Positions 29,389 to 57,390 of a DNA stretch of 64,000 nt are shown in pieces. The stretch is from IMG/VR virus record IMGVR_UViG_2920292642_000002, positions 19,431 through 83,430 of that record; one strand, written 5' to 3'. Made by a program: the position numbers and the translations under genes. Position 1 is the stretch's first letter, and every line of letters begins with the position of its first letter. The notes under the pieces were generated by a model, which had not been told where the DNA came from, did not search any database, and saw nothing but the letters and a program-made list of their open reading frames with translations. This DNA is from a virus (lineage: Duplodnaviria; Heunggongvirae; Uroviricota; Caudoviricetes).

Positions 29389-29400
29389 TCTGGTACGCCT

Positions 29401-29704: not shown

Positions 29705-29710
29705 ATGTCT

Positions 29711-29820: not shown

Positions 29821-29825
29821 ATAGA

Positions 29826-29904: not shown

Positions 29905-29960
29905 ATTGATACGTTTAGAGGTATAGAGCGCGCGGCTCTATACGTCTAAAGGTATCAGAT

Positions 29961-30676: not shown

Positions 30677-30679
30677 GGA

Positions 30680-30754
30680 TGGCAGCCCATGACGGTTTCG
30701 ATCCGTCTTCTCCTGATTGAGAATCAGGTGTCCTATCCACTAGACGAATGGGCC
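30680..30754 (-). tRNA. tRNA-Glu(CTC); T-loop ATCGAAA (A54)
   Basis: anticodon arm CCTGA-TTCTCAA-TCAGG, D-arm GTC-TAGTGGATAG-GAC, CCA encoded. Confidence 0.55.
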
Positions 30755-30758
30755 AAAT

Positions 30759-30837
30759 TGGTCGGGCGGACGGGGCTCGAACCCGCATCGCAACGCTTGA
30801 AAGGCGCGCCACCTAGTCCAGTTTAGAAGGACCGCCC
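30759..30837 (-). tRNA. tRNA-Glu(TTC)-like; weak anticodon stem
   Basis: perfect acceptor CGGGCGG/CCGCCCG, loop CTTTCAA, T-arm GCGGG-TTCGAGC-CCCGT. Confidence 0.5.
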
Positions 30838-30914
30838 GTGGTCCTCGACCGTGGTTTCGATCCACGTGCCTCCGGCGTGTCGTGCCGGCGCTCTCCCGAG
30901 TGAGCTAGTCGAGG
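30838..30914 (-). tRNA. tRNA-Val(GAC)-like with C33 (loop ACGACAC); abuts previous tRNA
   Basis: anticodon stem CCGGC/GCCGG, T-arm CGTGG-ATCGAAA-CCACG, acceptor CCTCGAC/GTCGAGG. Confidence 0.45.
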
Positions 30915-30915
30915 T

Positions 30916-30991
30916 TGGTTGACCCTGCCGGTTTCGATCCGGCTGCCTCCTGTGTGTAAGACAGGCGCTCTCCCGAGTGAGCTAAGGGTCT
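30916..30991 (-). tRNA. tRNA-Val(TAC); 1-72 mismatch
   Basis: anticodon arm CCTGT-CTTACAC-ACAGG, T-arm GCCGG-ATCGAAA-CCGGC. Confidence 0.55.
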
Positions 30992-30995
30992 GAAC

Positions 30996-31069
30996 TGGTT
31001 GTCCCACTGAGAATCGAACTCAGATCAACCGCTTATCAAGCGGACGCTCTACCGTTGAGCTATGGGACG
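30996..31069 (-). tRNA. tRNA-Ile(GAT); C1-A72 mismatch
   Basis: loop TTGATAA, D-arm GCTC-AACGGTA-GAGC, T-arm CTGAG-TTCGATT-CTCAG. Confidence 0.55.
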
Positions 31070-31110
31070 ACACCGGGCCGAGGCTTGCGCCCCGACCCGA
31101 TGGGGCTTGT

Positions 31111-31185
31111 TGGTCTGGGTGCGGAGTTCCGCCCTCCGGCATCCGGCTTCCAAGGCCGGTACTCTTCTGCACGAGCTTCACCCAG
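31111..31185 (-). tRNA. tRNA-Pro(TGG)-like with non-canonical D- and T-loops
   Basis: perfect acceptor CTGGGTG/CACCCAG, anticodon arm CCGGC-CTTGGAA-GCCGG, T-loop GGCGGAA. Confidence 0.4.
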
Positions 31186-31195
31186 TTATCAGGCA

Positions 31196-31240
31196 AAAAA
31201 GAAGGCCCGGTTTTCACCGGGCCTTTGAAGTTGCCAACAG
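31196..31240. terminator. bidirectional hairpin terminator
   Basis: GGCCCGGTTTTCACCGGGCC flanked by AAAAAAGAA and TTTGAAG. Confidence 0.5.
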
Positions 31241-31352
31241 AACTCTTGATTGGTTCAGTCGCGCAATACCTTCCGGCCCGATTCCTCGGTCGGTTCAATG
31301 ATCTCCACGACGGGGACGATCAGGTTGCGCACTGGTGTTCTCCTAACGAAAT

Positions 31353-31431
31353 TGGTTGCGGCGGCTGGATTTGAACCAGCGATCTTCTGGTTATGAACCA
31401 AACGAGATTGACCGGGCTTCTCTACACCGCA
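31353..31431 (-). tRNA. tRNA-Met(CAT) (second CAU tRNA; Met/Ile2 unresolved)
   Basis: loop TTCATAA, D-arm GAGA-AGCCCGGTCAA-TCTC, T-arm GCTGG-TTCAAAT-CCAGC, CCA encoded. Confidence 0.5.
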
Positions 31432-42381: not shown

Positions 42382-43848
42382 TCACCGGACCTGATATTTC
42401 CGGTTTGCCTCATCCATCTCACGCTGGCGCTTCTGCCGGCTGCGCTCCCACATCACGTCCTCGACATCCTCAGGGCAGAATAGGTCGAGCGCTTCCTGCG
42501 TCAGCCGGCGATCGTAGGTCGTGACCTTCTCGATCCACGTGCCCTTGCCGTCGCCATAGCCTTTCGTCTCCCTGTTCAGACGCATGCGCGCGTAATGCGC
42601 GTCCGGGATCGTGCCGTGGAATTTCTGCCAATCCGGATGGAAGTCCCTGATGTCCTCCATCATCCCGTTGAAGGTGAAAAAGGCATCCGGGCTGACCTGC
42701 TGGCGGAACGCCTGCCGGCGCATGAACTCGTAGAACCAGTCGACCAGATAGTTCTCCTTGACATCGTAGTCGTGGAAAGCCTGCCGGCGCGGCCGGTAGA
42801 GTCCGTAACGCACGCGCTCAATTCGCGCTTCTCGATCGGTGTCGTCCGCACCCTTGCTCTTGGTTCGCCGCCAGCGTTCGAGATGGGTATCGATCGTGTG
42901 TGGGTTGGAGGGCTCACCGAAGACCTCGGGATCGGCCGTCATCCTGACCACGGTCTCTCGATCGAAGACGGGGAAATGCTCCAGCTTGAGGAGGATGTCC
43001 TTCCACGTCCACATCCGCTCATTGCGCTTGGCCGAAAGCTTCTCGATGTTGAAGGCGGCGCGGCGCTCGCGGAACACGTCATAGACATCCGACCGGTTGA
43101 TCCTGTCCAGAATCTCCGGCTGGATCATGAACTGGCCGGTCGATTTCGGCATGCGGCCGTTCGGAAGGGTCCGATGCTTGGCGAACATCTCCGCCTCGAT
43201 CGGCGCAATCATGTGACGGGCCGACTCGATCGTATGTGGAGTGAACAGATACTTCTTGGCAACGCGTCGGAAGAATGGCTCGCTCGGGTGATAGAAGGTC
43301 CGGCTCGGGTCCACGTCCATGGCGTAACGACCCATGGGACCGACACCCAACGTCTCGATCATCTCGTCGGACCGCTCCAGCTTCTTGCGATATCCCTCGG
43401 GATCGGCGTCGAGATGGAACACGTCGGTGAAGCAGGAGGAGAAGAGCTTGCGGGTCATCCACACCGCGCCCGGCCGGAAGTCGCGCTCCTGACTGTCGCG
43501 GGTGATTGTGAACGGGTTGCCGTCACTGTCGAGCACAGGCTTGCCGTCGATCAGGTATGGCGTCTCGATCGGCGGGTGGTAGATGCCCTTGTGATCGGTG
43601 TAGCCATAATACTCGCGCCGGGTCGCGGCCGGGAAGGGTGTCGCCCGGAGATAGGCGTCGCAGACCGCGCGCATCCATATCTCCATGGCGGTGAAGACGA
43701 ACTCCTTGCCGTCCTCCTCGACCTCGAACAGATTCTGAAACCTCGGCGAGACGCGGCGCTTGCGGGCATTGCTACGAATGTTTCGGTTCTGCGACCGTCG
43801 CTCCTTCGAACGCCCGCTTCCCATCTTCAGCTTCATTCTGCACTCACT
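42382..43848 (-). CDS. hypothetical protein (~488 aa) with highly basic N-terminus
   Basis: ORF 42382..43854; ATG at 43848 follows duplicated junction motif; no family recognised. Confidence 0.5.
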   Translation of the reverse strand, partial: SECRMKLKMGSGRSKERRSQNRNIRSNARKRRVSPRFQNLFEVEEDGKEFVFTAMEIWMRAVCDAYLRATPFPAATRREYYGYTDHKGIYHPPIETPYLIDGKPVLDSDGNPFTITRDSQERDFRPGAVWMTRKLFSSCFTDVFHLDADPEGYRKKLERSDEMIETLGVGPMGRYAMDVDPSRTFYHPSEPFFRRVAKKYLFTPHTIESARHMIAPIEAEMFAKHRTLPNGRMPKSTGQFMIQPEILDRINRSDVYDVFRERRAAFNIEKLSAKRNERMWTWKDILLKLEHFPVFDRETVVRMTADPEVFGEPSNPHTIDTHLERWRRTKSKGADDTDREARIERVRYGLYRPRRQAFHDYDVKENYLVDWFYEFMRRQAFRQQVSPDAFFTFNGMMEDIRDFHPDWQKFHGTIPDAHYARMRLNRETKGYGDGKGTWIEKVTTYDRRLTQEALDLFCPEDVEDVMWERSRQKRQREMDEANRKYQVR

Positions 43849-44593
43849 CTGCACTCAACCTGTTTGGGCCGGGTTTCCCTGTGTGCGCAAGCGCAGTCGC
43901 GCGGTCTCAATAGTGGACGATCTGGGTGCACCGGTCCCAACCCCTTCCTCTCCCTTTAAGCCAAGAGAAGGCGTAGCATTTATGGTTAGCGCCTATGCTT
44001 AATCCTGTCAATCGTATCTTTACACGTTCGGACATCCGTTCTGGACGCGTCGGCTCCTCCTCTCCCCTCGACGAGGCGGTAGCCGGTCGGTCAGACAGGG
44101 CGGTAGTTAGGGATTAGAGTTATTGGCTAATCTAAAATGCTACTGCTTCTCAAGGCTTTTAGGTAGGTTAAGGGGTAAGAGAAATTTAGAGGACCAGAAA
44201 ACTAGAAGCTGAGAAAACCAGAAATCCATCAGTCGATCAGGTTGAGTTCAGAGCGTCTGCACTCAACCCGAGATCAACGGACGGGCACGCCCCTTCTCAC
44301 CGGACAGCCGCCGCGCCGGCCGCACTCGATCCAGCGCAGCACGATCCACTTGATCCAATTCTAAAAGGTTGAGTGCAGACCGGCACCATCCACGCCCAAT
44401 CCCATCCTCTCCAAATCCCTTCTCCCAGCAGGATGAGTGCAGACCGGCACCATCCAAAACTCAGACTTACAAACACCGGGTTGAGTGCAGACGCGCTTCA
44501 CAGCCCGATCGCTTTGTCAAGGTATTATAGTGAGCCACTGTCCAGAATTTCTTGACATTTAGCCTCCAGAAGTCGAGACTCCGCACATTCTCC

Positions 44594-45136
44594 AAAATGC
44601 GTGCGGTGCACATGACTCTGACCCTCAAGCGGCCACGGCCGACCTTTGCGCAAGTCTTCGCGACGACCGCACATCCCGACGTTCTCCATTGGATTTCCAA
44701 AAGCGAAGCGCGCATCGGCCCGGACGCCTATAAGGAGTTCGTCGGCTCGCTCCCCTCCGAGCACACGCAGTTCCTGCACCTGCTCGAAGTGTCACTGCGA
44801 CAGGGTCAGGGCAATCTCGACGGCTTTCGCGTCGCCTCCGATCTCAAATCCTATCTCGATTGGCCGGTCGATTCCGAACTGGTCAAGATCATCGACGACG
44901 CCGTGGACATGACCCAGCGCAAGAACCTGCGGCTGGCGACGATCGCATGGGTGATGGAGACTGGCACCCGCTTCCACGCCAAACCCTCCGAGGAAGTCCA
45001 ATATCGCGGCGAGACCTTTTCCGGCACACGCTCCGGCCGCGTCGTCGAGGTCGACAGGGTGATCGCCTCTGGCACCGTCGCCGATGCCAATGACCAGCGC
45101 TGGACCGTACTCGGCGAAAATCTGGTGGCGGCATGA
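44594..45136 (+). CDS. hypothetical protein (180 aa)
   Basis: ORF 44552..45136 from ATG 44594 preceded by GTCCAGAAT...TTGACA promoter-like region. Confidence 0.45.
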   Translation, partial: KMRAVHMTLTLKRPRPTFAQVFATTAHPDVLHWISKSEARIGPDAYKEFVGSLPSEHTQFLHLLEVSLRQGQGNLDGFRVASDLKSYLDWPVDSELVKIIDDAVDMTQRKNLRLATIAWVMETGTRFHAKPSEEVQYRGETFSGTRSGRVVEVDRVIASGTVADANDQRWTVLGENLVAA

Positions 45137-45699
45137 AGTGGTCGGACAAAACCATCCGGCCGGGACCTGTCTGCGGCATCGATCCGGGCGTCGACGGCGC
45201 ACTCGCCTTTCTCGATGTGACCGACTGGACGATCGAGATCGTCGACGTTCCGAAGATAAAGGTCATCGTCAACGGTAAGCCGCGTCATCACGTCGACCAT
45301 GTCCGCCTCGCCGAGATCATCACGGCGCGCCGGCCGTGGATGATCGTCACCGAGCATCTGTGGTCGCGGCCCGGTCAGGACGCCAAGGGCCTGTTCTCGC
45401 TCGGCCGCTACACCGGACAGGTCGAAATGGCCTCCTCCATGCTCGGCTGTGACCTCCGGCAGGTGACGCCGCAGGAGTGGAAGTCCGACCTCGCCGTCTC
45501 CTCCGACAAGAACCTCAGCCGCGAACGCGCCGCGCAACTGATGCCGTGCCTCGCGCCGACCCTCACCCGCAAGGGCGACCACGATCGCGGCGAGGCCGCG
45601 CTGCTCGCCTTCTGGGGCGCGCTCAAGCTCGGCCGCATGCCCAAGCCGATCCGCCTCATCAACCCACCCGCCCCTCCCAAGAGAAAGAAAGCAGCATGA
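45133..45699 (+). CDS. RuvC-like Holliday-junction resolvase (RNase H fold)
   Basis: N-terminal GIDPGVDGALAFLD motif and acidic residues. Confidence 0.5.
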   Translation: MKWSDKTIRPGPVCGIDPGVDGALAFLDVTDWTIEIVDVPKIKVIVNGKPRHHVDHVRLAEIITARRPWMIVTEHLWSRPGQDAKGLFSLGRYTGQVEMASSMLGCDLRQVTPQEWKSDLAVSSDKNLSRERAAQLMPCLAPTLTRKGDHDRGEAALLAFWGALKLGRMPKPIRLINPPAPPKRKKAA

Positions 45700-46091
45700 A
45701 GAAAATGAACTGGGACGACGAGATGCGTACCCACGTCCCGTCGATGTTCATCACCGAGGATGACGACGACGAGGTCGAGTTGGTCGACACCGGCCGCGTC
45801 GACAAGGACGGCGTCCCGATCATCATCGCGCTCTCTCACAAGCAGGGCTTCGCCGGCTTCCTGCCGCCCGGAATGTACGAGCGTATCCAGCAGGCGAAGG
45901 AGGAGGCCGAGGCCAAGGCTGAGCTTACCGAGATGATCGAGGAGATCGTCACCGTCACGCTGAAGAAGATCGGCATCAAGCTCCCGCCGCCCGCGCCGGG
46001 GCCGGCTCCGGCTGTGATCCCGCGCATCAAGGAGAAGACTGTCAAGGTCTCGAACAAGAAGAAGGGATCGGCCGATGCCCGTCCTGAGTAA
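45696..46091 (+). CDS. hypothetical protein (131 aa)
   Basis: tail of ORF 45477..46091 from ATG 45696. Confidence 0.4.
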   Translation: MKKMNWDDEMRTHVPSMFITEDDDDEVELVDTGRVDKDGVPIIIALSHKQGFAGFLPPGMYERIQQAKEEAEAKAELTEMIEEIVTVTLKKIGIKLPPPAPGPAPAVIPRIKEKTVKVSNKKKGSADARPE

Positions 46092-46566
46092 CCCGAAATG
46101 GGAGGTCTTCGCCACCGGTCTGGCGGACGGCCTCACCGTTCTCGATGCCTATGAGCAGGCCGGCTACCCGCGCTCGGCCTCCTCGGCGTCGCAGTTGAAG
46201 AACCGGCCTGAGCTTCAGTCGCGCGTGCAGGAACTGATCTACGAGAAGCAGAGCGCCGCCCGGCGTGAGTCCGAGAATGATCCCGACATCAACCCGCACG
46301 AACTCAACCGTGCATGGTTGATCACCACGCTGATGAAGAATGTCGAGATCGCCCAGAAGGCGCAGCAGATCGCACCGGCCAACAAGGCGGTCGAGATGCT
46401 GGCCGAGATCATCGGCTACTCGCTCAAGAACCGTGGCGGCAAGAACGCCAACGACGACGACCCCAACAAGGACGGCGAAGCGCCCGGCTTTGATTTCGAC
46501 AAGGCCAATGACGCCATCGGCCGGCTCATGGAAGTGCTGCCGGACGCACCGACCGAGGGTAGCTGA
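46075..46566 (+). CDS. terS: terminase small subunit
   Basis: N-terminal HTH-like region PKWEVFATGLADGLTVLDAYEQAGYP typical of phage small terminase family; immediately upstream of terL. Confidence 0.6.
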   Translation: MPVLSNPKWEVFATGLADGLTVLDAYEQAGYPRSASSASQLKNRPELQSRVQELIYEKQSAARRESENDPDINPHELNRAWLITTLMKNVEIAQKAQQIAPANKAVEMLAEIIGYSLKNRGGKNANDDDPNKDGEAPGFDFDKANDAIGRLMEVLPDAPTEGS

Positions 46567-49379
46567 TGGCCCGTCCCTACCCTTACGCGGATCGGGACCG
46601 GGTCTACGCGTTTCTCAAACAGGCCGAAGAGTTCGCCACTCTGGTCGAGAAGATCGCCGAAGGTCAGGCCGATCACAGTCCCGAGCTTCAGGGCGCGCTC
46701 GCCGCGCTCACCGGAGCCACCGACCTGCATCAGCAGCACAAGGCCGTCCAATACATGCTGGATCGTGCCCGCAAGGAGCACGAGCGCCGGCTGATCGAGG
46801 CCGCGCCGAACGACTTCACCGCCTATGTCGAAGTGATCAATCCGGAGGAGCCGTGCGCCTCGAAGCTGCACCGCTTCCTCGGCGAGACGCTGATGGAGAT
46901 GGAGGCCAATTCCGGCCTCAAGAAGGGCGTCTCGATGCCACCCGGCCACGCCAAGGACATGTGCGTGTCCACGCCTGTGATGTTGGCGGACGGCTCGATG
47001 AAGCCGCTCGGCGAGGTCCAGGTTGGCGACTTCGTCATCACCCACACCGGCAGCGCCCGCGAGGTTCTGGAGGTCCACGATCAGGGCAAGCGCCCGGTCA
47101 TGCGTATGCGCACCCTCTGCGGCCGTGAGCTTTTTCCACATCCCGAGCATCCGTTCCTGACGCCGGCCGGCTGGGTGCAGGCGCAATATCTGAAGCAGGG
47201 TGACGTACTGGCGCAGCAGCGCGAGTTCTCGATTCCCAACGGCTCCGGCCGGTCCCTCTACGATTTCATTCTGGCCGGCTACATGATGGCGGCTGGCATG
47301 GTGCGCGGCCGGCATTACAGCCGCGTCTTCACCGTCGACCGCACCTTCCGCACCGACGATCCCGAGATCATGGCCGATCTCATCGACACGGCCAAGCGAC
47401 TAGGATTCCGCGCGCGGATCGCCAAGAAGGGTAGCTACGGCAAGGAGATCGAGACCGCCCGGTTCGATGAGAAGTTCATCCACTGGCTGCGTGGCCAGCG
47501 CCTGAACGGCCTGCACCGCCATACCATGCGGGTCCCCGACTGGGTGTTCAAGGGTGGGCTGATCGAGATCGCCGCCTTTGTCGGCGCGATCTTCTCGATG
47601 GACGCCAGTCTGGTGCCGACCTCCCACAAGCAGAGCCTGAACGCCCGCAAGATGGTGATCCGGCTGCGCAACGCCGGATTGGTTGGTGACATGCAGCGGC
47701 TGCTCGCCCGCCTCGGCGCGCGCTCGGCACTCGATAAGCATCTGGTCAACAACTACAACTACGAGCCGACCGAGTTCTGGAGCCTGACGGTCTGGGACGC
47801 CGAGGATCAGTATTATCTCCAGCGCTCGATGCGCGTGCGTGGCGTCAACCAGCGCCTGTGGGCCGACCCGATCGTGCCGCGCGCCTTCTTCGACGGACGC
47901 TATGCCACCGACCGCATCATCGCGATCGACTATGACTGGGACGTGCGGGAGACCAAGTGCCTGACCGTCGACGAGGACCATTCCTTCCTCGCTGATGGCG
48001 TGGTGGTGCACAACTCCACCTATTGCTCGCGCCTGTTTCCGTCGTGGTGGATGGGCAAGCGCGAGAACAAGCGCTGGCTTCAGGCCGGCCACACCCAGCG
48101 TTTTGCCGAGAAGGAGTTTGGCAAGAAGACCCGCGACAACATCCTCGCCACGGCAGCCTATCAGAAGGTGTTTCCGGGCGTCGGGGTCAGCACCGCCTCG
48201 CAGGACGAGATCATCCTGACCAATGGCTGCGCCTACAACGTCAAGGGCGTCGGACAGGGCATCTCGGGTTACCGCTCGCACTTCAACAACGTCGACGACC
48301 CATACGCGACCCATGAGGACGCGATGAGCCCGACCATCCGCGAGAAGGTCTGGAACTGGTGGGCGAACGACTTCAGGACCCGTCGCCTGCCGGGCGCGGG
48401 CGAACTGATCATCGTGACGCGCTGGCACACCGACGACGTGGTCGGCCGTCTGGAGGAGATGATCAAGAAAGGCGAAATAGAACCATGGGAGTTTATTAAT
48501 CTACCCGCGTTTGCGGTAGAAGAAAACGATGTATTAAATCGCAAAATTGGTGACGTTTTGTGGCCGGAAGTATTCAAAAAAGAATTTCTTCTGGACATAA
48601 AAGGCACCAGTACGGAAGAAAACTGGTCCGCCCTGTACCAGTGTGCGCCAGTGTTGGAAAAGGGCAACATCCTCCAGCGTAACTGGATTAAATACTATAA
48701 ACAACTGCCGCAGCGTAGTATTCGCCCGGCTGGTACTGTGCAGGCCGTGAACCGGGCTCCCGTGGCCGATCCGCGCCTCGTACGGGTGGACCCTTTGAAA
48801 TTCAAAATCGGGGCCGAGGGACCCTCGGAATCGAAACCGGGGCCGGCCGATTCTGGAAATCAAAATTCGGTTTTTGCAATTCGAACCGTGGTTTCCGTCG
48901 ACACCGCCGAAACGGATTCGGCAAGGGCCGACCGCTCGGCGCTTCAGGTCTGGATTTATGGATCGGACCGCAACCACTATCTGGCGCATGCCTCGGTCGG
49001 CAAGTATCTGTTCCCCGACCTCGTCGAGGCGATCGAGACGACGGCGCTGGCATGGGGAGCCGATCTCGTGCTGATCGAGACCAAGGGCGCGGGTCTGCAA
49101 TACATTCAGGCGCGCACCGGCCACTCGCAGACGCCGATCATCGGTTTCAACCCGAAGAACATCGAGAAGTCGATGCGCTTTGACGGCACCATGGTGATGT
49201 GGCAGACCGGCACCGTGCTGCTGCCGGAGAAAGGGACATGGCTGGCCGACTATGTCGACGAGCTTCTGAAGTTCCCGTCTGGGCGTTACGACGACCAAGT
49301 CGACGCGACCAGCCAGTATTTGCACTGGCACCGGATCGACGGCGGCTGGGATCGCGGCATGAAGAAGATCAAGGGCTGA
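46566..49379 (+). CDS. terL: terminase large subunit interrupted by a 351-aa LAGLIDADG intein
   Basis: N-extein ...MPPGHAKDM | CVSTPVMLADG...VVVHN | STYCS...; C-terminal nuclease/ATPase region typical of TerL. Confidence 0.8.
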   Translation: MARPYPYADRDRVYAFLKQAEEFATLVEKIAEGQADHSPELQGALAALTGATDLHQQHKAVQYMLDRARKEHERRLIEAAPNDFTAYVEVINPEEPCASKLHRFLGETLMEMEANSGLKKGVSMPPGHAKDMCVSTPVMLADGSMKPLGEVQVGDFVITHTGSAREVLEVHDQGKRPVMRMRTLCGRELFPHPEHPFLTPAGWVQAQYLKQGDVLAQQREFSIPNGSGRSLYDFILAGYMMAAGMVRGRHYSRVFTVDRTFRTDDPEIMADLIDTAKRLGFRARIAKKGSYGKEIETARFDEKFIHWLRGQRLNGLHRHTMRVPDWVFKGGLIEIAAFVGAIFSMDASLVPTSHKQSLNARKMVIRLRNAGLVGDMQRLLARLGARSALDKHLVNNYNYEPTEFWSLTVWDAEDQYYLQRSMRVRGVNQRLWADPIVPRAFFDGRYATDRIIAIDYDWDVRETKCLTVDEDHSFLADGVVVHNSTYCSRLFPSWWMGKRENKRWLQAGHTQRFAEKEFGKKTRDNILATAAYQKVFPGVGVSTASQDEIILTNGCAYNVKGVGQGISGYRSHFNNVDDPYATHEDAMSPTIREKVWNWWANDFRTRRLPGAGELIIVTRWHTDDVVGRLEEMIKKGEIEPWEFINLPAFAVEENDVLNRKIGDVLWPEVFKKEFLLDIKGTSTEENWSALYQCAPVLEKGNILQRNWIKYYKQLPQRSIRPAGTVQAVNRAPVADPRLVRVDPLKFKIGAEGPSESKPGPADSGNQNSVFAIRTVVSVDTAETDSARADRSALQVWIYGSDRNHYLAHASVGKYLFPDLVEAIETTALAWGADLVLIETKGAGLQYIQARTGHSQTPIIGFNPKNIEKSMRFDGTMVMWQTGTVLLPEKGTWLADYVDELLKFPSGRYDDQVDATSQYLHWHRIDGGWDRGMKKIKG
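46962..48014 (+). other. intein with double LAGLIDADG homing-endonuclease domain inside terL
   Basis: block A CVSTPVMLADG, block B HPEHPFLT, LAGLIDADG-like LYDFILAGYMMAAGMV and LIEIAAFVGAIFSMDASL, block G VVVHN + Ser. Confidence 0.75.
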
Positions 49380-49688
49380 GCGGCGTTAACCTTACCTGCA
49401 CAAGGTTAACGCCCGCGCCCGGCTCTGCACTCAACCCAGTTTCCCTAATGATTTCAAGGCTTTACGCCGGACTCCTACCAACTCCTAGAATGTACGAATT
49501 AGGAGTTGGGGAAAATTTGGATGATCATGGCCTCCAGATTTTGGATGAGCATGGTTTTGCATGAGGTCTGGCATGAGCATGGTCGAATTTTTGGATGGGG
49601 GAGAATTGGAACACGCGCCTGCGCGAGCGCGCGCCCGGATCGCTCAGATTTTCGGAAAACTTGAGTAAAATTTGAAACAAGCCCGCCG

Positions 49689-49845
49689 TTAACCATGCTC
49701 AGGTAAGGTTAACGCGCCTTGTTAACCATTCTCAGGTAAGGTTAACGGCCGGCGTTAACCATGCGGGAGTAAGGTTAACGCCGACCGCCTCCACCCAGCC
49801 CGCCTCGTTAACCCTACCCGAGTAAGGTTAACAACGCCAGCCCCG
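49689..49845. promoter_or_regulatory. cluster of four tandem GTTAACC-N10-GGTTAAC palindromes plus a half-site (operator-like array)
   Basis: perfect 7-bp inverted repeats with 10-bp spacer repeated at 49692, 49727, 49762, 49812; same element precedes every downstream cassette. Confidence 0.55.
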
Positions 49846-49927
49846 GCGTTAACCTTGCTGGCGATCGCCACTTGCATTTCGTGCGCAATGCATTATTCTG
49901 TATCAGTCAACGCAACAGGAAAGAAAA

Positions 49928-50149
49928 ATGAGCAAGGAACCTCCCTTCCTCGACTGGGACGCGATCGAGACCGAGATCGCCGACACCAATCGCAAGGCGT
50001 GGGACGCCGAAAACACCCCGGAGAAGATCGCGGCGCGCAAGGCCAAGTCTGAAGCCGAGTTCGAGCGCGGAGTCCGTAACGGCTGGTGGGACAAGGACGG
50101 CAATTCCCTCCAGCCCGAGGAGCCGGACGAGGAGGAGGACGAGGAATAA
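49928..50149 (+). CDS. cassette small protein (73 aa, acidic C-terminus)
   Basis: preceded by TTGCAT...TATTCTGTATCAGTCAACGCAACAGGAAAG leader. Confidence 0.5.
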   Translation: MSKEPPFLDWDAIETEIADTNRKAWDAENTPEKIAARKAKSEAEFERGVRNGWWDKDGNSLQPEEPDEEEDEE

Positions 50150-50286
50150 GACGCCGGCCGTTAACCATTCCGGGGTAAGGTTAACGCGTGCCGGCCGCGC
50201 CCGGCGTTAACCTTGCTGTCCAGATTCGCTTTACAAATCCGGAGGCGTCGCCTAAGGTGCTCTGGTCAACGCAACCGGAGGACCCC

Positions 50287-50613
50287 ATGAGCAAGCGATC
50301 CGACAAGGCAGCGGCCAAGCTGTTCCACCAACTGTTTCCCGGCGTCGGCTGGGATTACACCGACCACAAGGCCAAGCCGCTGCTGCGCGCCGCGTTCGCC
50401 CTTTACGAATCGGAGTGGAAGACCACCCAGCCTCAGGCGTTCAGGATTGAGCGCTGGGAGTGGCCGGCTAAGGCGTTCAAGAGCGACGATCCATATGTTT
50501 TCGACGCGCATGAGCCGTGGACGGTGCTTTTCCGCGAGGTCAAGATGCTGCACGACGCTCACCGCGAGACAAGCGGATACCCGCGCACGCTGGCGGACCG
50601 GATGCCCCGGTGA
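50287..50613 (+). CDS. cassette small protein (108 aa)
   Basis: promoter TTTACA-N17-TAAGGT and leader GTCAACGCAACCGGAGG upstream. Confidence 0.5.
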   Translation: MSKRSDKAAAKLFHQLFPGVGWDYTDHKAKPLLRAAFALYESEWKTTQPQAFRIERWEWPAKAFKSDDPYVFDAHEPWTVLFREVKMLHDAHRETSGYPRTLADRMPR

Positions 50614-50726
50614 TGACCTACGAAATCACCACGGCGCTTACCTTCCTGCTGATCCTCAAAGTGCCGCTGCTGCTCTGGATCGTCCAGTTCACGATGGACG
50701 TGGACTCCGGTCGCATCAAGCTCTGA
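50613..50726 (+). CDS. hydrophobic micro-protein (37 aa, MTYEITTALTFLLILKVPLLLWIVQF...)
   Basis: TGATG coupled to previous ORF; terminator follows. Confidence 0.4.
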   Translation: MTYEITTALTFLLILKVPLLLWIVQFTMDVDSGRIKL

Positions 50727-50907
50727 AACGTCGAGGCCGGGCCAAGCGCCCGGCCTTTTTCGTGCCGGCCGGCGTTAACCATACCCGAGTAAGGTTAACG
50801 GCGAGCGCGCCGGCTGCTCCGAGGCATTAACCTTGCTGTCCAGAATCGCTTTACAAAAGCGGAGGTATGGCCTAAGGTCCTCTGGTCAACGCAACGGAGA
50901 GACCGAC

Positions 50908-51168
50908 ATGTTCAAAATGGAGTTCAGGACCGACAACGCCGCTTTCGTCGACGATCAGGCCGGCGAGATCGACCGGATTTTCCGCGAGGTCGCCGAGCGC
51001 GTCGCGGCGGCGGAAAAGGGCGGCACGATCCGCGATAGCAACGGCAACCGAGTCGGCCGCTGGGAACTGGAGGCCGAAGACGAAGAGGAGGAAAACCCCT
51101 TCGATCCCGAGAGCCCGGAGGGTCGCGCGTGGGAGCGCGGCGACCGTCACCTTGTGGGAGGCAACTGA
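50908..51168 (+). CDS. cassette small protein (86 aa)
   Basis: leader GTCAACGCAACGGAGAG. Confidence 0.5.
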   Translation: MFKMEFRTDNAAFVDDQAGEIDRIFREVAERVAAAEKGGTIRDSNGNRVGRWELEAEDEEEENPFDPESPEGRAWERGDRHLVGGN

Positions 51169-51404
51169 TGACCAAGCGAGAGAAGCGCCGTTTCATCCGC
51201 GAACTGATCAGCGCTGTCCAGAAGTCAATTCTGGATCGTGTCCCAGACATGCCGGAGGAGTGGGACGGTCACGAACTGCGCGCCTATATCGCCGAGAAGT
51301 TCGGCGAAACCGTTGTGACGGTCGGCAGGACCGGGCACTATGGCAAGCCCTACGCCAAGCGGACCCGTGACTATCGCAACACCGTTATCGAGCGCAACCT
51401 ATGA
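51168..51404 (+). CDS. cassette small protein (78 aa)
   Basis: coupled to previous. Confidence 0.45.
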   Translation: MTKREKRRFIRELISAVQKSILDRVPDMPEEWDGHELRAYIAEKFGETVVTVGRTGHYGKPYAKRTRDYRNTVIERNL

Positions 51405-51532
51405 CCCTATTCGTGGAAGGCTACGAGGCCGCGAGACGTGGCGTCAAATGGTGGCGCAATCCCTATCCCTCAGGCTCTGAGGACGCCTACACATGGGACA
51501 AGGGACACACGAGGTTCCGCACCATCGGCTGA
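51401..51532 (+). CDS. small protein (43 aa)
   Basis: ATGA coupling; manual translation. Confidence 0.35.
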   Translation: MTLFVEGYEAARRGVKWWRNPYPSGSEDAYTWDKGHTRFRTIG

Positions 51533-51843
51533 TGCTGCACCGCACAACACGATAAATCAGGAGGTCGGGCCGCGTGCCCGGCCTCTTTTGCATTGCGGTA
51601 AGAGATTGATCTGCAAGGCTGATCTGGTCCAACTCCGAAAAGGTGGAAAAGCGGAGATGTCCGAAATCTGCGGCAAAGTTCGGACCGGCCGGGCCTTAAC
51701 CCTACCCGGTCAAGGTTAACCCGTCGACAGGCTCAGGACGCCCGGCCGCGCCACCTGCCGGCGTTAACCATGGCCGAAATCTCCGCTTGCAAATCATGCG
51801 GGATGCACTATTCTGATCCTGTCAACGCAACGGAGTTTTCGAC

Positions 51844-52077
51844 ATGGCAGTGCATTCCCTCGACACCTTCGGCCAGCCGGACGGCTCGACCCAGATCAAG
51901 GATCGGACCGGCGCACTGGTCGCCACCCTCGACTGGGACGGAGAGGCCAGCGCATGGAAGGTCACCCCGGACAACGACCCGATCGGCTTCCCGCGCCCGG
52001 CACACTTCGCCAGCCGCGTCGCGGCCGAGTTCTGGGTGCTGGCCTACGCCAACGAACTGGAGGCGACCGGGCATTGA
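51844..52077 (+). CDS. cassette small protein (77 aa)
   Basis: leader GTCAACGCAACGGAG. Confidence 0.5.
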   Translation: MAVHSLDTFGQPDGSTQIKDRTGALVATLDWDGEASAWKVTPDNDPIGFPRPAHFASRVAAEFWVLAYANELEATGH

Positions 52078-52149
52078 GCCCGGTCTTTTCCTTGCCCGGC
52101 CGGCGTTAACCCTACCCGAGTAAGGTAAACGCGGCCGGCTGCGGCGTTA

Positions 52150-52225
52150 ACCTTGCTGTCCAGATTAGCTTTACAAGAGCGGAGACCACACCTATGATGC
52201 TCTGGTCAACGCAACGGAGGACGTA
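52150..52225 (+). promoter_or_regulatory. representative cassette promoter and leader: GTTAACCTTGCTGTCCAGATT - TTTACA - N17 - TATGAT - GCTCTG - GTCAACGCAACGGAGG - ATG
   Basis: -35 TTTACA at 52170-52175, -10 TATGAT at 52193-52198, SD GGAGG 7 nt before ATG 52226. Confidence 0.55.
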
Positions 52226-52477
52226 ATGACTAAAGGCCCTATCATCCATGCACCTGTCGTGGTGCGCGAAGCATTCCGCATCGGCGATGAGATCATCGAC
52301 GCCAACCCGATCAGCGGTTTCCATTTCTCCGTCGAGACGATCGGCGGCAAGGTCTACACCGGATGCCCGGAAGAGTACGCCGACAACGGCGTTCTAATTC
52401 TCGACTGCGTTGGCGGCACGCCGACGCCGATCATCGACGTTGCCAAGATCGCCGCCATCACCGTGGTTGAGGTCTGA
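52226..52477 (+). CDS. cassette small protein (83 aa)
   Basis: ORF track. Confidence 0.5.
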   Translation: MTKGPIIHAPVVVREAFRIGDEIIDANPISGFHFSVETIGGKVYTGCPEEYADNGVLILDCVGGTPTPIIDVAKIAAITVVEV

Positions 52478-52480
52478 ACT

Positions 52481-52696
52481 ATGACGCACTATCCCCTTAC
52501 CCACGTCGACGGGAGCGCCGACAAGCGCTACTCGATCGCCAAGGAGTTTTGCGGCCACGCCGATCGCCGCTGGGTGCTCCGCTTCTGCGGCGAGTTCGTC
52601 AAGTCGTCGATCAGCTTTGCCAGCGTCGCCATCCGCGCCGCTGGTCACCGCTCGGCACTCAACGGCCAAGTGATATTTGAGGAGGTCCGGGCATGA
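52481..52696 (+). CDS. cassette small protein (71 aa)
   Basis: ORF track. Confidence 0.45.
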   Translation: MTHYPLTHVDGSADKRYSIAKEFCGHADRRWVLRFCGEFVKSSISFASVAIRAAGHRSALNGQVIFEEVRA

Positions 52697-52887
52697 AGAC
52701 CCAACTGCAACATTTTTGGGAAGCGCATCGCCGCATCGCCGATCTCAATGAAGCGATGCTCGATGCACTCTTCGGACCCAACCCGATCACCGACGCCGAG
52801 CTTCGCGCCTTGATCGAGAAGCGGCCGGAGCGTTACGGCCGCTTTGCCGGCTATCTCGGCACCCGTCAGATGGAGCAGGCCGCGTGA
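52693..52887 (+). CDS. cassette small protein (64 aa)
   Basis: ORF track. Confidence 0.45.
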   Translation: MKTQLQHFWEAHRRIADLNEAMLDALFGPNPITDAELRALIEKRPERYGRFAGYLGTRQMEQAA

Positions 52888-53023
52888 GCGGCCTTTTCCT
52901 TGCCCGGCCGGCGTTAACCTAACCGAGATAAGGTTAACGCGGCGGCGCGGCCGTTAACCTTGCTGTCCAGATTTGCTTTACAGTCTCCCCGGCTCTGCTA
53001 TGGTGTTCTGGTCAACGCAACGG

Positions 53024-53274
53024 AGAGACTCATGTACGTGATCCGCACCCACACTGTCGAACTGGCCGACAAGCGCTTCCTGTCCAGCGACACGCTGACG
53101 GAGATGACGGCGAAGGAACTGCGTACCGCCGAGGCCGAGAACCGGTCCGGCATCGAATACAACATCGTCACCGCCGAGATGGCGCGCCGCTATGTCAAGC
53201 AAGGCATGGTCCATGAAACGGGACTCTGGGTCGACATGGACGGTAAGGTCCGATACGCCAAGGCCGGGGAGTGA
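53024..53274 (+). CDS. cassette small protein (83 aa)
   Basis: internal ATG of ORF 52960..53274 after leader. Confidence 0.5.
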
Positions 53275-53417
53275 TCCCGGCCAACCCTTCACGCGCGTTA
53301 ACCATTCCAAGGTAAGGTTAACGGCCGCTCCGGCGTTAACCTTGCTGTCCAGAATCACTTGCATCTGGCGCAATCTCCGCTATTGTGAGACTGTCAACGC
53401 AACAAAGGAGATCGCTG

Positions 53418-53741
53418 ATGTACATGTTCAAGGACAAGAAGCTGGAGCAGGACCAACGCAAGGTCCAGTTCGGCGACGCCGACAAGTCCACCCTCGCCAA
53501 CATCTGCATGGTCGCGGCCGAGCGCTTTCGGGAGAACGCGGCCGAGTTCCGCAAGTGTATCGACTACAAGCCGAAGGAAGGCGAGTTCCCAATCTTCCCG
53601 ACCGGCGAGGCAGCCAAGCGGCTGGTCGAGCAGTTCGAGCGGCAGGCAGCCGAGGCGGAGAAGTTCCGCGACCTGTTCGACAACGTGGTTCAAATCCCGG
53701 ACATGGTGACGTTTGTCGAGGAAGAGGAGGAGGCCGCGTAA
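53418..53741 (+). CDS. cassette small protein (107 aa, ends EEEEEAA)
   Basis: stop codon lies in loop of terminator hairpin. Confidence 0.5.
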   Translation: MYMFKDKKLEQDQRKVQFGDADKSTLANICMVAAERFRENAAEFRKCIDYKPKEGEFPIFPTGEAAKRLVEQFERQAAEAEKFRDLFDNVVQIPDMVTFVEEEEEAA

Positions 53742-53886
53742 GCGGCCTTTTTCTTCGCCCGCCATTAACCCTAACCGGTCAAGGTAAACGCGGCCGGCCC
53801 CGGCGTTAACCTTGCTGTCCAGATTCGCTTTACAGATGCCGGCGATCTGCTATGGTGCTCCTGTCAACGCAACGCAGGAGTCCTGA

Positions 53887-54436
53887 CATGGATCATCTCG
53901 CTTTCCTCATGCCCATTTTCAATCGCCCAATGGGCGAAAGCTGGATCACCATGGTGATCGATGTCGTGCAAAAGCGCGACGCCGAGGATCACCCGATCAA
54001 CGGCGCAGATGTCGTCTCTTCCTATGAGACCGACAATCCCAAGCTGATCGGACATTCGCTGCGCGATCTGATCATCTCGGCACAGGCAAGCGTCACCGGA
54101 CAAGAGGACTGGTACGCCATTCGCGTCGAATACCGCAACGCCAATACGGTCGACGCCAAGCGCGCCCGAGCCATGGTCAAGACGCTCACCGCGATCGAGA
54201 AAGCGGCCGAGAAACTGCGCGACAAGCAGGGGCTCGACTATCTCACCGCGATCCTGCTGGCCTTCGACAAGGTATTTCCGGGCATGCAACTGGCCGAGAC
54301 TTCCGAGGGCGGCACAGTGCGCGGCTTCTACAATCGCCACAAGTGGCGGTGGACGCCGATCGGCGGCGCAGTCCGGGCAATCCGATCGAGCGCCGAGGAG
54401 GCGCTTGTCAGACACAGGAAGGAGAAGGCCGCGTAA
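53887..54436 (+). CDS. cassette protein (182 aa)
   Basis: ORF 53852..54436 from ATG 53887. Confidence 0.5.
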
Positions 54437-54584
54437 GCGGCCTTTTCCTTGCCCGGCCGGCGTTAACCCTACCCGGTCAAGGTTAACGCGGCCGACTCCG
54501 GCGTTAACCTTGCTGTCCAGATACGCTTTACAAATGCGGAGGTCGTGGTATGGTGCTCCTGTCAACGCAACAAGGAGTTCTGAC

Positions 54585-54962
54585 ATGACCCACATGGAAA
54601 ACCGCATCGCCCGCGCCGAGGCGCTGCTGGCCGAGAAAGGCGTCAACGTCTCGACCAAGGCCAGCCTCAAGATCGCGATCGATCAGGCCGGCGTCGCCCG
54701 CGTCAAGCTGGCCGATGTCAAGAATCACCTCCATCTGGTCTCCATGGCGGTCGAACGTGTGCTGGAGACGGGTCATCGCCTGACCGCGCACGAGTTCAAC
54801 GACGAACGATATTCCAAGGCGGTCACGGCCTGCGCCGCGATCGGTTTTCGCGAGGCGCTGGCCGCGCTCGATCGCGCGATCGAGTTCGCCGAACGCGATC
54901 TGGTCGCGTGGCGCGACGCGTGGAAGAACATCCGCACCATGACCAAGGAACGGGCCGCGTGA
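54585..54962 (+). CDS. cassette protein (125 aa)
   Basis: ORF 54405..54962 from ATG 54585. Confidence 0.5.
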   Translation: MTHMENRIARAEALLAEKGVNVSTKASLKIAIDQAGVARVKLADVKNHLHLVSMAVERVLETGHRLTAHEFNDERYSKAVTACAAIGFREALAALDRAIEFAERDLVAWRDAWKNIRTMTKERAA

Positions 54963-54974
54963 GCGGTCCGCCCC

Positions 54975-55037
54975 ATGGTCGCAGTCTTCCAACTGATCCT
55001 TGCACTTCTACTACTTTACATCCTCTGGCCGCTCTGA
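54975..55037 (+). CDS. hydrophobic micro-protein (20 aa, MVAVFQLILALLLLYILWPL)
   Basis: sits between main ORF and terminator; paralog at 59283. Confidence 0.4.
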   Translation: MVAVFQLILALLLLYILWPL

Positions 55038-55202
55038 CGAGCGGCCTTTGGCTTGCCCGGCCGGCGTTAACCCTACCCGGTCAAGGTTAATACTACCGCA
55101 CCGGCCGCGACCTCGACGCGTTAACCTTACTACCGATCGCCGCTTGCAATTCATGCAGGATGCACTATTCTGATCCTGTCAACGCAAACGGAGGTTTTCA
55201 AA

Positions 55203-55679
55203 ATGTCTGCATGGATGGTTTCTAACGCCCACGTCACCGCAATGATTTCTTGTGCGGTCGCACTGTTCCGGGAGTCCGACTCCTTCTCCGAGTTCCGTCT
55301 TGCTAATGGCAAGACGGCCGCGCGCCACGCTTTGGCCACTGCCGATCTGACCGAGCTTGGCAAGCTCCTGCTTCAGGAGAACGCCAAGAGCCTCGACGCC
55401 CGCTATCCCGGCGATAAGGGGTCAAGCGATGGCGACATGTACCATCAAGAGGAGATCGACTCCTATGTCTACGCCCGCGACAGTCACGCGGCCGGTCAGG
55501 ATGTCGGATTCCTTGCCAAGTTGATTAGCTGTTACGCTTATCAGTCCTGCGAACATGACGGCTGGGAGACCAGCGCGGCCAAGCAATGGTGCGACTGGGC
55601 GCAGGAGGTCGGCATCTCGGTCCTGCCGAGCTACAAGCGCGCACCATGGGGCTATGACGGACCGCCCGCGCCGCGTTGA
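55203..55679 (+). CDS. cassette protein (158 aa)
   Basis: ORF track. Confidence 0.5.
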   Translation: MSAWMVSNAHVTAMISCAVALFRESDSFSEFRLANGKTAARHALATADLTELGKLLLQENAKSLDARYPGDKGSSDGDMYHQEEIDSYVYARDSHAAGQDVGFLAKLISCYAYQSCEHDGWETSAAKQWCDWAQEVGISVLPSYKRAPWGYDGPPAPR

Positions 55680-55864
55680 CACACACGCGGGCCAAAGGAG
55701 GCCGGGCCGATCGCCCGGCCTCTTTTTCGCGCCGCGCCGGCCGTTAACCCTACCCGAGTAAGGTTAACGCCGATCGCCGGCCGCGTTAACCTTTCTGTCC
55801 AGATTTGCTTGCATCTGGCACAATCTCCGCTATTGTGGAATAGTCAACGCAAACGGAGGCTCCC

Positions 55865-56263
55865 ATGCCGCTACCTTCTCACCTGTTCATCGCCGATGAC
55901 GGCGCGCTCTACGACACCCGCGAACCAAACTGGGCGGAGCGCGCCCTTCGCCCGGTCTACAGAAAGACCGCCGTAACCATCCACGATGTCGCCGAACTGA
56001 AGGCGACCCTGCGCGTCGGTTCGCATGCATGGCCGGGTGGCTATCCCCTGTACATCGTATTGCAGGATGGATCGCCGATCACCCATGACACCGCGCGCAA
56101 GAATTTCCGCGAACTGGTCGCCGCAATGTGGGACGAGAACCTGCGCAACGACTGGCGACCGGTCGCCACGGGAATCAACTGGGAAGACCCGGACCTGTAC
56201 GACGCGCACACAAATGAGCGAATCCCCTCGGCCTATGCCGAGCCGGAGGAGGAGGCGGCGTGA
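55865..56263 (+). CDS. cassette protein (132 aa)
   Basis: ORF track. Confidence 0.5.
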   Translation: MPLPSHLFIADDGALYDTREPNWAERALRPVYRKTAVTIHDVAELKATLRVGSHAWPGGYPLYIVLQDGSPITHDTARKNFRELVAAMWDENLRNDWRPVATGINWEDPDLYDAHTNERIPSAYAEPEEEAA

Positions 56264-56331
56264 TCCTGCTGGTCCGACTCTTCGGGCTGGCACTGGCGCT
56301 GCTGTTTGCCTTCATCGTCTTCCAACTATGA
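56260..56331 (+). CDS. hydrophobic micro-protein (23 aa, GTG start, ILLVRLFGLALALLFAFIVFQL)
   Basis: GTGA overlap with previous stop; followed by terminator. Confidence 0.3.
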   Translation: MILLVRLFGLALALLFAFIVFQL

Positions 56332-56514
56332 CCGGGCGCAAGCCCGGTCCTTCCCTCCCCGGCCGGCGTTAACCCTACCCGCGTAAGGTTAACGCGCCGA
56401 GCGCCGGCCGCACCTGTCGGCGTTAACCTTACCTGCCGGCCGGTCAAGTTTCCGCTTGCAATTGTCCAGAATTACTTTACAACTCAAGGAGGTCAACGCA
56501 ACGGAGTTTCCGCG

Positions 56515-57147
56515 ATGGAACGCATAAAACTTCCCAACGGCTGGTCCGCCGAAATTCATCAGGATGAGGACTGCGAACGTCCCTATCAGGACGATGACGC
56601 GGTGCGGATCGTCGTCCTGCACGGCCGTTACATCGATCCGGCCAAGGGAAACTGCGGATCGGACCCGGATGAGGTCGCGCGCTGGGTCAAGGAAAACGCC
56701 CGCGATTGGTTCGTGACCAATCTCTATCTGTACGATCATAGCGGCGTCGCCTATCGGGCCGGCGAACGCAATCCATTCTCCTGCCCATGGGATAGCGGGC
56801 AGGTTGGCATCGTCGCGCTCAAAAAGAGCGAATGGGGACGCGGCAAGGGCGAACGCAACGCCAAGCGGCTGGAATATGCCAAGTCCGTCGCCGAGGAGTA
56901 TGGCCGCTGGGCCAATGGCGAATGCTATGGCTATGTGCTGCACGATCCCGAGGGCGAGGAAAGCGACTCCTGCTGGGGACACATCGGTTACGATTGGGTA
57001 TGCGAGGCCGCGAAGGACGCGGCCGAGGCCGGCGAGAAAGCCCGGCAACGGAGATTGAAGGAGGAGCAGGAGGAACGGAGACTGGCCCGGCAATCCAGAA
57101 CCAAAGCTTACATCCGCAACCACGTGCCGCTGGACAGGCGAGTCTAG
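56515..57147 (+). CDS. cassette protein (210 aa)
   Basis: ORF track. Confidence 0.5.
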   Translation: MERIKLPNGWSAEIHQDEDCERPYQDDDAVRIVVLHGRYIDPAKGNCGSDPDEVARWVKENARDWFVTNLYLYDHSGVAYRAGERNPFSCPWDSGQVGIVALKKSEWGRGKGERNAKRLEYAKSVAEEYGRWANGECYGYVLHDPEGEESDSCWGHIGYDWVCEAAKDAAEAGEKARQRRLKEEQEERRLARQSRTKAYIRNHVPLDRRV

Positions 57148-57390
57148 GAGGTCGACAAATCCCACACATTGATTAAAAGGCCGGACAAACTGTCCGGCCT
57201 TTTTGCTTGTCCGGCCGGTGTTAACCTTACCTGATCAAGGTTAACGGCCGTCGACGAGGCCTCCGACCTCGACCTCCGCGTTAACCTTACCGTCGACATC
57301 GGAGTTCGATTTTTGAAAAATTAGCTTGCATCCGTCCAGAAAATCTGTACGGTCAGAGTTGTCAATGCAACGCGAAATGGAGATCGCACA

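Follow-up and report, generated by a model that had tools for sequence, protein, structure and literature searches.

Results

A non-coding gap upstream of the packaging operon

Within the 64-kb stretch of phage DNA that we analyzed (the window), a non-coding gap of 775 bp (43837-44611) lies between a leftward gene encoding a 484-aa protein (42382-43836, minus strand) and a rightward series encoding, in order, a 174/179-aa protein (phrog_11118), a RuvC-like resolvase, a 131-aa protein, TerS and TerL (terL, 46566-49379; 937 aa, intein-containing). An earlier note on this DNA had described a non-coding stretch of about 700 bp (43860-44575) between divergent modules. The stretch is indeed non-coding, with the wider limits given here, and the term divergent modules is too strong, as only a single gene runs leftward and the genes beyond it run rightward again. 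The downstream gene is taken to start at the ATG at 44612 because the public annotation and the relatives described below support that codon, and the start of the 484-aa gene agrees with the public protein (P0007). A conserved small open reading frame in the gap was considered and rejected, since tblastn matches merely reflect conserved DNA blocks, and an Rfam search of 43800-44650 on both strands returned no match at E ≤ 10.

The 484-aa protein is a member of a rare family and is very basic at its N-terminus. Searches of Pfam, PHROG, NCBIfam and PDB gave no match, its AlphaFold model is unusable (pLDDT 45), and of the 20 remote homologues (300-640 aa; P0008-P0028) obtained with a profile search, the ten that were scanned gave no significant domain match. 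The TerL intein (Hint, intein-splicing and LAGLIDADG matches) occupies residues ~135-484, where phiCbK TerL has its intein as well.

Mesorhizobium phage Cp1R7A-A1 (MT188704; TerL identity 70%) is the closest phage and has the same gene order around the gap; the phiCbK-like Caulobacter phages come next (TerL identity ~32%). The gene adjoining the gap has an identical counterpart in KEU06_09310 of Pseudaminobacter sp. 19-2017, which lies on a 391-kb contig; the phage is a Cp1R7A-A1-like relative of phiCbK carried in a Pseudaminobacter assembly. Relatives were found through homologues of the two flanking proteins and then the contigs that encode them, namely the metagenome contigs L059, L060 and L063 and the Mesorhizobium assembly contig L175; a further contig (L174) is a near-copy of Cp1R7A-A1. 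A near-identity search with 43000-46000 against 50,697 phage records gave no match, related-locus searches that used the two flanking proteins or a family alignment as query returned no relatives from the viral, metagenome or genome collections, and none of the 109 matches listed from TGTCCAGAATNNCTTGACA scans of metagenome and genome collections carries the motif array.

The repeats in the gap are copies of a family-specific, asymmetric 13-14-mer, rGGTTGAGTGCAGA. The earlier note had listed here an AT-rich stretch, a convergent palindrome, a direct repeat and a further motif copy, all of which are present; to its list two copies at the left edge must be added, and the gap therefore holds seven. 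These two form an overlapping pair (GGTTGAGTGCAGA-GTGAGTGCAGA, 43837-43859, minus strand) that abuts the ATG (43836) of the 484-aa gene and is window-specific: no such pair stands at the start of the Cp1R7A-A1 orthologue. An AT-rich, purine-rich island at 44081-44260 reaches a GC minimum of 0.38 in 120-nt windows (0.40-0.41 in 100-nt windows over 44100-44249, against ~0.60 around it), with G in excess of C and A in excess of T on the plus strand; two further islands in the window are equally AT-rich. The palindrome (GGTTGAGTTCAGAGCGTCTGCACTCAACC, 44240-44268) has 16-nt arms that are 88% complementary, separated by 3 nt, and is formed by a variant copy in forward orientation (GTTGAGTTCAGA, 44241-44252) and an exact one in reverse (44256-44267). 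To its right lie a GC-rich block (CGGACGGGCACGCC, 44278-44291, plus strand), three direct GATCCA boxes on the plus strand (at 44328, 44343 and 44352, spanning 44328-44357) and a 27-nt direct repeat with 96% identity between its two plus-strand copies, the first (44366-44392) being the motif plus CCGGCACCATCCA and the second (44430-44456) a GATGAGTGCAGA variant plus CCGGCACCATCCA. Related CCATCCA boxes come after motif copies in both the window and Cp1R7A-A1. The last copy, at 44480-44491, belongs to a promoter-proximal element, GGGTTGAGTGCAGA (44478-44491, plus strand), whose position is kept in all five relatives (alignment columns 795-810).

The earlier note had proposed a comparison with relatives, and this shows that the gap is syntenic in Cp1R7A-A1, L059/L060, L063 and L175, which share both the motif and the layout. 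The gap measures 630-800 bp in the relatives and its parts follow the same order in all. On the left stand a TGTCAA box near the leftward gene, the AT-rich island (with a counterpart in Cp1R7A-A1, L059, L063 and L175) and one forward copy; the middle holds an invariant GC-rich block (GGCTCCGGCACGGGGCACGCCTGCT, matched by CGGACGGGCACGCC in the window) and then one to three reverse copies; and on the right come two to four forward copies with C-rich spacers and a near-invariant 130 bp made up of the last motif copy, TTCAGA, TTTGTCAAG, TGAGCC and TGTCCAGAAT-NN-CTTGACA. These 130 bp are the best-conserved block in the alignment of five relatives; the proteins flanking the gap have just 40-61% identity to their homologues there. 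The forward-reverse pair that forms the palindrome is kept but its spacing is not, being 3 nt in the window and 60-100 nt in the relatives.

Two more distant phages separate these parts. In the more distant relative L061, the promoter core directly follows phoH, upstream of the orthologous gene, and the 484-aa gene, the AT-rich island and the array are all missing. The core promoter standing alone suggests that array and island are separable and travel with the leftward gene, with which they co-occur, and that the array is an add-on regulatory part outside the core promoter. In phiCbK (JX100813, 199617-200259; L064, 3139-3781), a 640-bp gap at the equivalent place upstream of RuvC-TerS-TerL has a 260-bp AT-rich island, GC-rich direct repeats and two TTGACA boxes, and no copy of the 13-mer; the architecture of the gap therefore appears to be older than the motif.

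A dispersed 13-mer conserved in the phage family

The earlier note had described motif copies in the gap. The copies are real, and they are not confined to it: the most informative fact about the region is that they form a genome-wide family conserved in relatives. With up to two mismatches to GTTGAGTGCAGA, the window has 29 matches, seven of them in the gap, against 4.6 ± 2.3 in shuffled sequence, where none of 100 shuffles reached 29; 24 copies have at most one mismatch, and the exact 12-mer occurs 18 times where about 0.01 occurrences would be expected. Cp1R7A-A1 (131 kb) has 39 copies with at most one mismatch, and its 20.8-kb locus alone has 13, against 0.03 in shuffles. Across the family the 13-mer is found 25-40 times per genome, and the gap is its densest cluster. 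A scan of IMG/VR with GGTTGAGTGCAGATG gave 54 single matches and no contig with two copies, which we discarded as chance matches, and the 13-mer is absent from the 16.7-kb phiCbK locus.

A count by position over 72 copies from three genomes confines the information to positions -2 to +11 and reveals no second conserved block within 45 nt on either side. A single compact block with no partner at that distance fits a single-site recognition element rather than a bipartite promoter. By-eye comparison with sigma-54 promoters and with LexA, IHF and CtrA sites gave no fit. A phage RNA polymerase promoter was rejected, as no RNA polymerase gene was seen (the 1249-aa protein encoded in the window is primase-like) and no second conserved block beside the motif supports one. 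An attP site was also rejected, as the gap is uninterrupted and runs collinear with that of the free phage genome. A full-text literature search found the sequence of the motif in unrelated papers only, and it therefore appears to be undescribed.

About a third of the copies are tied to translation starts. On or within 3 nt of a start codon lie nine of the 24 copies in the window and about 10-12 of the 39 in Cp1R7A-A1, always on the coding strand, the nine in the window included. The motif ends on the A of the ATG at 231 (minus), 429 (minus), 15676, 36031, 39415, 40695 and 41669, and the ATG directly follows the motif at 39966 and 43837 (minus); overall, 'TG' comes right after the motif in ~30% of copies, against ~6% expected. 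Read as GGT-TGA-GTG-CAG-ATG, the motif supplies a stop codon and in-frame starts and can act as a gene junction, and its reverse complement has neither a stop nor a start in any frame. Because only the sense orientation supplies both, junction copies are sense and flush on the ATG; because the reverse complement offers neither, antisense copies fall within coding sequence or gaps.

Many copies lie within genes. Exact copies occur in both orientations within the genes for RtcB, a DNA polymerase, ThyA and a ppGpp hydrolase, and about 15 of the 39 copies in Cp1R7A-A1 are intragenic. The RtcB gene has three copies, a sense one (encoding GVECR), an antisense one (SALN) and a third at the stop codon, all kept in Cp1R7A-A1; across the two in-gene copies, all eight wobble positions are the same in both phages, compared with 62.6% elsewhere in the gene. 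A hand tally against the deposited Cp1R7A-A1 annotation gave 23 copies sense to local transcription, 15 antisense and one ambiguous, and about 13 sense to 15 antisense once start-codon copies are set aside. Another antisense copy (49424-49435, minus strand) stands singly 45 nt past the terL stop and, with the gap, brackets the packaging operon; its position and orientation are kept in Cp1R7A-A1 (14052, plus), L059 (14826, minus) and L175 (4392, plus). Upstream of Cp1R7A-A1 gene 066, the spacer that separates a TTGACA box from a TAGGAA hexamer is taken up by one copy, and a protein bound there would sit in an occluding position. The 35-kb structural and lysis module of Cp1R7A-A1 (96-131 kb) contains none of the 39 copies (P ~5e-6 by hand calculation for random placement), a gap in the distribution that points to control of one temporal class of genes.

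Candidate promoters at both ends of the gap

Scanned for consensus sequences, neither the gap nor the window nor Cp1R7A-A1 yielded a sigma-70 promoter or a terminator, and we therefore infer promoters from conservation and paralogy. The earlier note had placed a promoter for the downstream genes at the right end of the gap. Its TTGACA is perfect (44552-44557) and the element TGTCCAGAAT-TT-CTTGACA is present as described (44539-44557), but the sigma-70 scan finds no canonical -10 hexamer at 16-18 nt. These boxes are part of a conserved promoter/operator block (44513-44557, plus strand), near-invariant in the five relatives, that comprises TTTGTCAAG (44513-44521), TGAGCC (44531-44536), TGTCCAGAAT (44539-44548) and CTTGACA (44551-44557).

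The GTCCAGAAT..CTTGACA element belongs to a repeated promoter/operator family. In Cp1R7A-A1, about 20 copies of GTCCAGAA-N-CTTGAC stand upstream of replication and structural genes, some of them as perfect palindromes (GTCAAGAAATTCTTGAC). In the window, about 15 near-identical cassettes lie at genes in the 50-63 kb region (49385-63000), each with paired TTAACC (CtrA-like) boxes, TGTCCAGA-N4-CTTTACA, 17 nt, TAnGGT, a conserved GTCAACGCAAC leader, GGAG and ATG. Aligned to the register of these cassettes (TGTCCAGA-N4-CTTTACA-N17-TAnGGT), the packaging promoter would have its -35 at 44552-44557 and a putative weak -10, GAGACT, at 44575-44580 (plus strand), which has no consensus match; the TTAACC boxes are absent from it. 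The cassette region agrees with the report of a CtrA-box-rich terminal-repeat region in Cp1R7A-A1 (PMC9437464). The window has 55 occurrences of CGTTAACC.

At the left end of the gap, a candidate -35 for the 484-aa gene (44003-44012) reads TTGACA on the minus strand, and its TGTCAA complement is invariant in all five relatives, each of which has a hexamer starting with TA or TTA 17-18 nt further left that could serve as the -10. The sigma-70 scan missed this promoter.

Discussion

The gap is probably the main cis-regulatory region of this phage and acts as a protein-binding switch rather than as a site where the genome is cut. Among the roles that the earlier note had offered, that of a regulatory switch fits best, given the resolvase, TerS and TerL genes to the right, the conservation of the right-hand 130 bp above all other blocks, and the repeated promoter family to which that end belongs. 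Since the gap is the densest cluster of the 13-mer and lies between two probable promoters, we read it as an operator cluster for both flanks, at which a putative sequence-specific DNA-binding regulator would act between the leftward promoter and that of the packaging operon. We hold this reading tentatively and put it slightly short of an even chance.

According to this model, the right end of the gap would be the promoter/operator of the resolvase-TerS-TerL operon and the left end the probable promoter of the 484-aa gene. The 540 bp between the two promoters carry the AT-rich island and five 13-14-bp sites, with two more sites on the start of the leftward gene. One sequence-specific protein, encoded by the phage or by the host, would read the 13-mer on double-stranded DNA. 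The gap would be its binding cluster of highest density, whose occupancy sets the activity of both flanking promoters, whether by repression or by activation, and the 20-35 single sites spread over the non-structural part of the genome would bring early and middle genes under the same control. What the sequences show directly is the motif, with its statistics, distribution and conservation, and the promoter family. Binding by a protein at the DNA level would account for every class of copy, at gene starts, within genes in either orientation and in the gap. Some observations fit an operator cluster less well. The five central copies lie 100-350 bp upstream of the presumed start of the packaging transcript, a long way off for a simple operator; a role at the RNA level would also suit the high precision with which about a third of copies are set on start codons; and an AT-rich island combined with repeats and GATCCA boxes is also origin-like. 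Additionally, we found no motif-binding protein: the neighboring proteins have no Pfam, PHROG, NCBIfam or PDB match, and no helix-turn-helix or repressor match was obtained among 25 nearby proteins.

As judged from sequence, the dispersed 13-mer resembles two mycobacteriophage systems while failing defining features of both. The first is that of the operators and stoperators of Cluster A phages (L5 gp71 type), asymmetric 13-bp sites that are group-specific, number more than 20 per genome, lie at promoters and in very short intergenic spaces, often over stop and start codons, and are oriented with transcription (PMC9283540). Their cognate repressor is a monomeric immunity repressor with a helix-turn-helix and a stoperator domain, made by a temperate phage (PMC9283540). 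The 13-mer is likewise an asymmetric site of ~13 bp (13-14 informative positions), specific to a phage group and present in more than 20 copies per genome, with nine junction copies in the window and one promoter-spacer copy in Cp1R7A-A1, yet some 15 of 39 copies there lie in genes. In contrast to the Cluster A sites, its orientation does not track the direction of transcription (23 to 15 in Cp1R7A-A1), many copies are intragenic, none falls in the structural module, neither a repressor of that type nor any helix-turn-helix protein was found nearby and the host belongs to another phylum.

The second is that of the start-associated sequences (SAS/ESAS) of Cluster K, which are asymmetric 13-bp repeats in the non-structural part of the genome, tied to the ATG and often containing the upstream stop codon (PMC3203893). 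The same study reports an AGGAG Shine-Dalgarno core, placement 3-7 bp before the start and nearly uniform orientation at starts (PMC3203893). Length, asymmetry, ties to the ATG, a frequent upstream stop codon within the repeat, conservation across subgroups and exclusion from structural genes (none at 96-131 kb in Cp1R7A-A1) are all shared by the 13-mer. Unlike SAS, it lacks a GGAG core and, at starts, ends on the A of the ATG or 0-3 nt ahead of it; two copies in three lie away from starts, both orientations are common, and seven copies cluster in one gap. A third comparison comes from the same lineage, in which alphaproteobacterial phages have CtrA-box-rich gaps and terminal repeats, and where a Cp1R7A-A1 promoter has been tested experimentally (PMC9437464). 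Large non-coding regions with dense regulator-site repeats between or upstream of genes are common to both situations, but the 13-mer is not TTAA-N7-TTAA, the packaging promoter is a cassette without the box, and the CtrA-like boxes of the window are concentrated at 49.4-63 kb, outside the gap.

Iteron-type origins such as P1 oriR and lambda ori combine direct repeats with an AT-rich segment and DnaA boxes, and it is possible to see in the gap an intergenic replication origin of this kind, in which the island would unwind, the 13-mers would serve as iterons for a phage initiator (possibly the 484-aa protein), the GATCCA/CCATCCA boxes would recruit host DnaA, and transcription from the flanking promoters would activate the origin. 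The island (GC 0.38) adjoins three direct and two inverted repeat copies; the three GATCCA boxes, read by eye, match the alphaproteobacterial DnaA-box consensus TGATCCACA at 6-7 of nine positions; the array and island accompany the 484-aa gene and are missing where it is missing, in L061; and phiCbK also combines an AT-rich island with repeats at this position. However, iterons are normally restricted to the origin and its control loci, whereas the 13-mers extend over ~95 kb, at gene starts and inside genes. Their spacings are out of helical register (64 and 48 bp in the window; 50, 104 and 33 bp in Cp1R7A-A1), the replication module (the primase-like 1249-aa protein, a helicase and a polymerase) lies 30-40 kb from the gap, the cumulative GC skew of Cp1R7A-A1 has no extremum there, and the window contains two other islands that are just as AT-rich. 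No initiator was found, and the adjacent 484-aa protein has no recognizable fold or family. On balance, we consider an origin unlikely.

A role at the RNA level is quite unlikely by our estimate. The 13-mer would then be an mRNA signal at translation starts, similar to Cluster K SAS or to an operator or cleavage site of the RegA/RegB type, and the gap would yield a non-coding RNA whose sense and antisense copies titrate a factor or pair with gene starts. The coding-strand copies at starts and the excess of 'TG' after the motif agree with such a signal. Also, RNA from the gap folds better than shuffled sequences (z = -3.3), because the forward and reverse copies pair, and in the relatives this forward-reverse helix extends into conserved GGGTAGGA/TCCTTC flanks. 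But exact antisense copies within genes and intergenic regions would not be explained by a signal confined to mRNA, 15 of the 39 copies in Cp1R7A-A1 are antisense to local transcription, and the motif lacks a GGAG core. A structured RNA was rejected for want of covariation support in the alignment fold: the alifold covariation term is unfavorable (+1.94), with a compensatory change in one of 39 pairs. The loop of 3 nt in the window compared with ~100 nt in the relatives indicates that no RNA architecture is conserved, and the gap has neither promoter and terminator consensus sequences nor an Rfam match. As a long shot, the 13-mer could be a dual-use signal, with a gap RNA bearing sense and antisense copies that pairs with the start-codon copies on about ten early mRNAs. 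Just as speculative is the variant in which this RNA competes for the factor that binds those start-codon copies. If true, the phage would possess a multi-target antisense or sponge RNA that silences early translation as the packaging genes turn on.

The proposal in the earlier note that the gap is a packaging (pac/cos) site, which would here be a recognition site bound by the small terminase, is very improbable, since the homologous mapped terminus projects to 48540, ~4 kb to the right of the gap, and the motif is dispersed genome-wide, 25-40 occurrences per genome making a poor unique packaging signal. The idea draws on the fact that TerS typically binds clusters of repeats ahead of the terminase genes, as in lambda cosB and SPP1 pac; the gap is such a cluster, 1.5 kb upstream of terS, and one further motif copy lies just past terL. 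The only relatives with mapped ends, phiCbK and four close relatives, point elsewhere, as does Lacusarx. In phiCbK and its four close relatives, the left terminus is at terL codon 652 and the right terminus ~10 kb downstream (PMC3556154), and the doubled-coverage repeat of Lacusarx directly follows the terminase genes (PMC5648845). The left end of Colossus is likewise placed just after terL (PMC3556154). In L061, moreover, the same operon is found without the upstream array.

By BLASTP, phiCbK codon 652 aligns with R659 of the window TerL (nt 48540-48542), at the center of a second AT-rich island that lies inside terL (48441-48650; GC down to 0.35). The GC dip in terL is also found in phiCbK and is weaker in the close relatives, and GTTTTGTGG, just 3' of the cut, is common to the window and phiCbK. 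The terL island near 48540 is a better candidate than the gap for the start of packaging and is likely the left boundary of a terminal repeat.

The mycobacteriophage 13-mers led to an unusual repressor that halts elongating polymerase, in the case of stoperators, and to a start-codon signal that is still unexplained, in the case of SAS. A comparable but distinct system is now apparent in large, tRNA-rich Rhizobiales phages, kin of the Caulobacter model phage phiCbK. It has a clear nucleation cluster beside the packaging operon and offers a concrete handle for finding a new regulator, and the motif should be useful for dissecting how gene expression is timed in a phage group whose use of host CtrA has been demonstrated. 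Should the sites prove to be merely a conventional operator array, the result would be a useful annotation and no surprise.

Other features of the window

The lifestyle of the family deserves a closer look. Cp1R7A-A1 was described as presumably virulent (PMC9437464), and the window phage sits in a 391-kb Pseudaminobacter contig, with a relative on a 28-kb contig of a Mesorhizobium assembly; an integrase-like gene (218 aa, 8147-8803) is present in the window. Integration or a carrier state in this family is thus worth checking.

The third AT-rich island (24371-24610, GC 0.38) contains two motif copies (24542 and 24619), which lie on either side of a hairpin that has a T-run on the minus strand, where the tRNA array ends, and are kept as a pair in Cp1R7A-A1 (42287 and 42366). 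The window has 26 tRNA genes (23043-31431), 25 of them in a single minus-strand array, and several, for Lys, Asn and Leu, are 82-88 nt long. Within the array lies a full-length GOLLD RNA (28100-28566, minus strand; 205 bits, E 2e-56), which overlaps a tRNA-Arg call at 28430-28504. Finally, the phage encodes a permuted tmRNA gene of the alpha (alphaproteobacterial) type (12958-13269, minus strand), which scores 101.6 bits to tmRNA_permuted.
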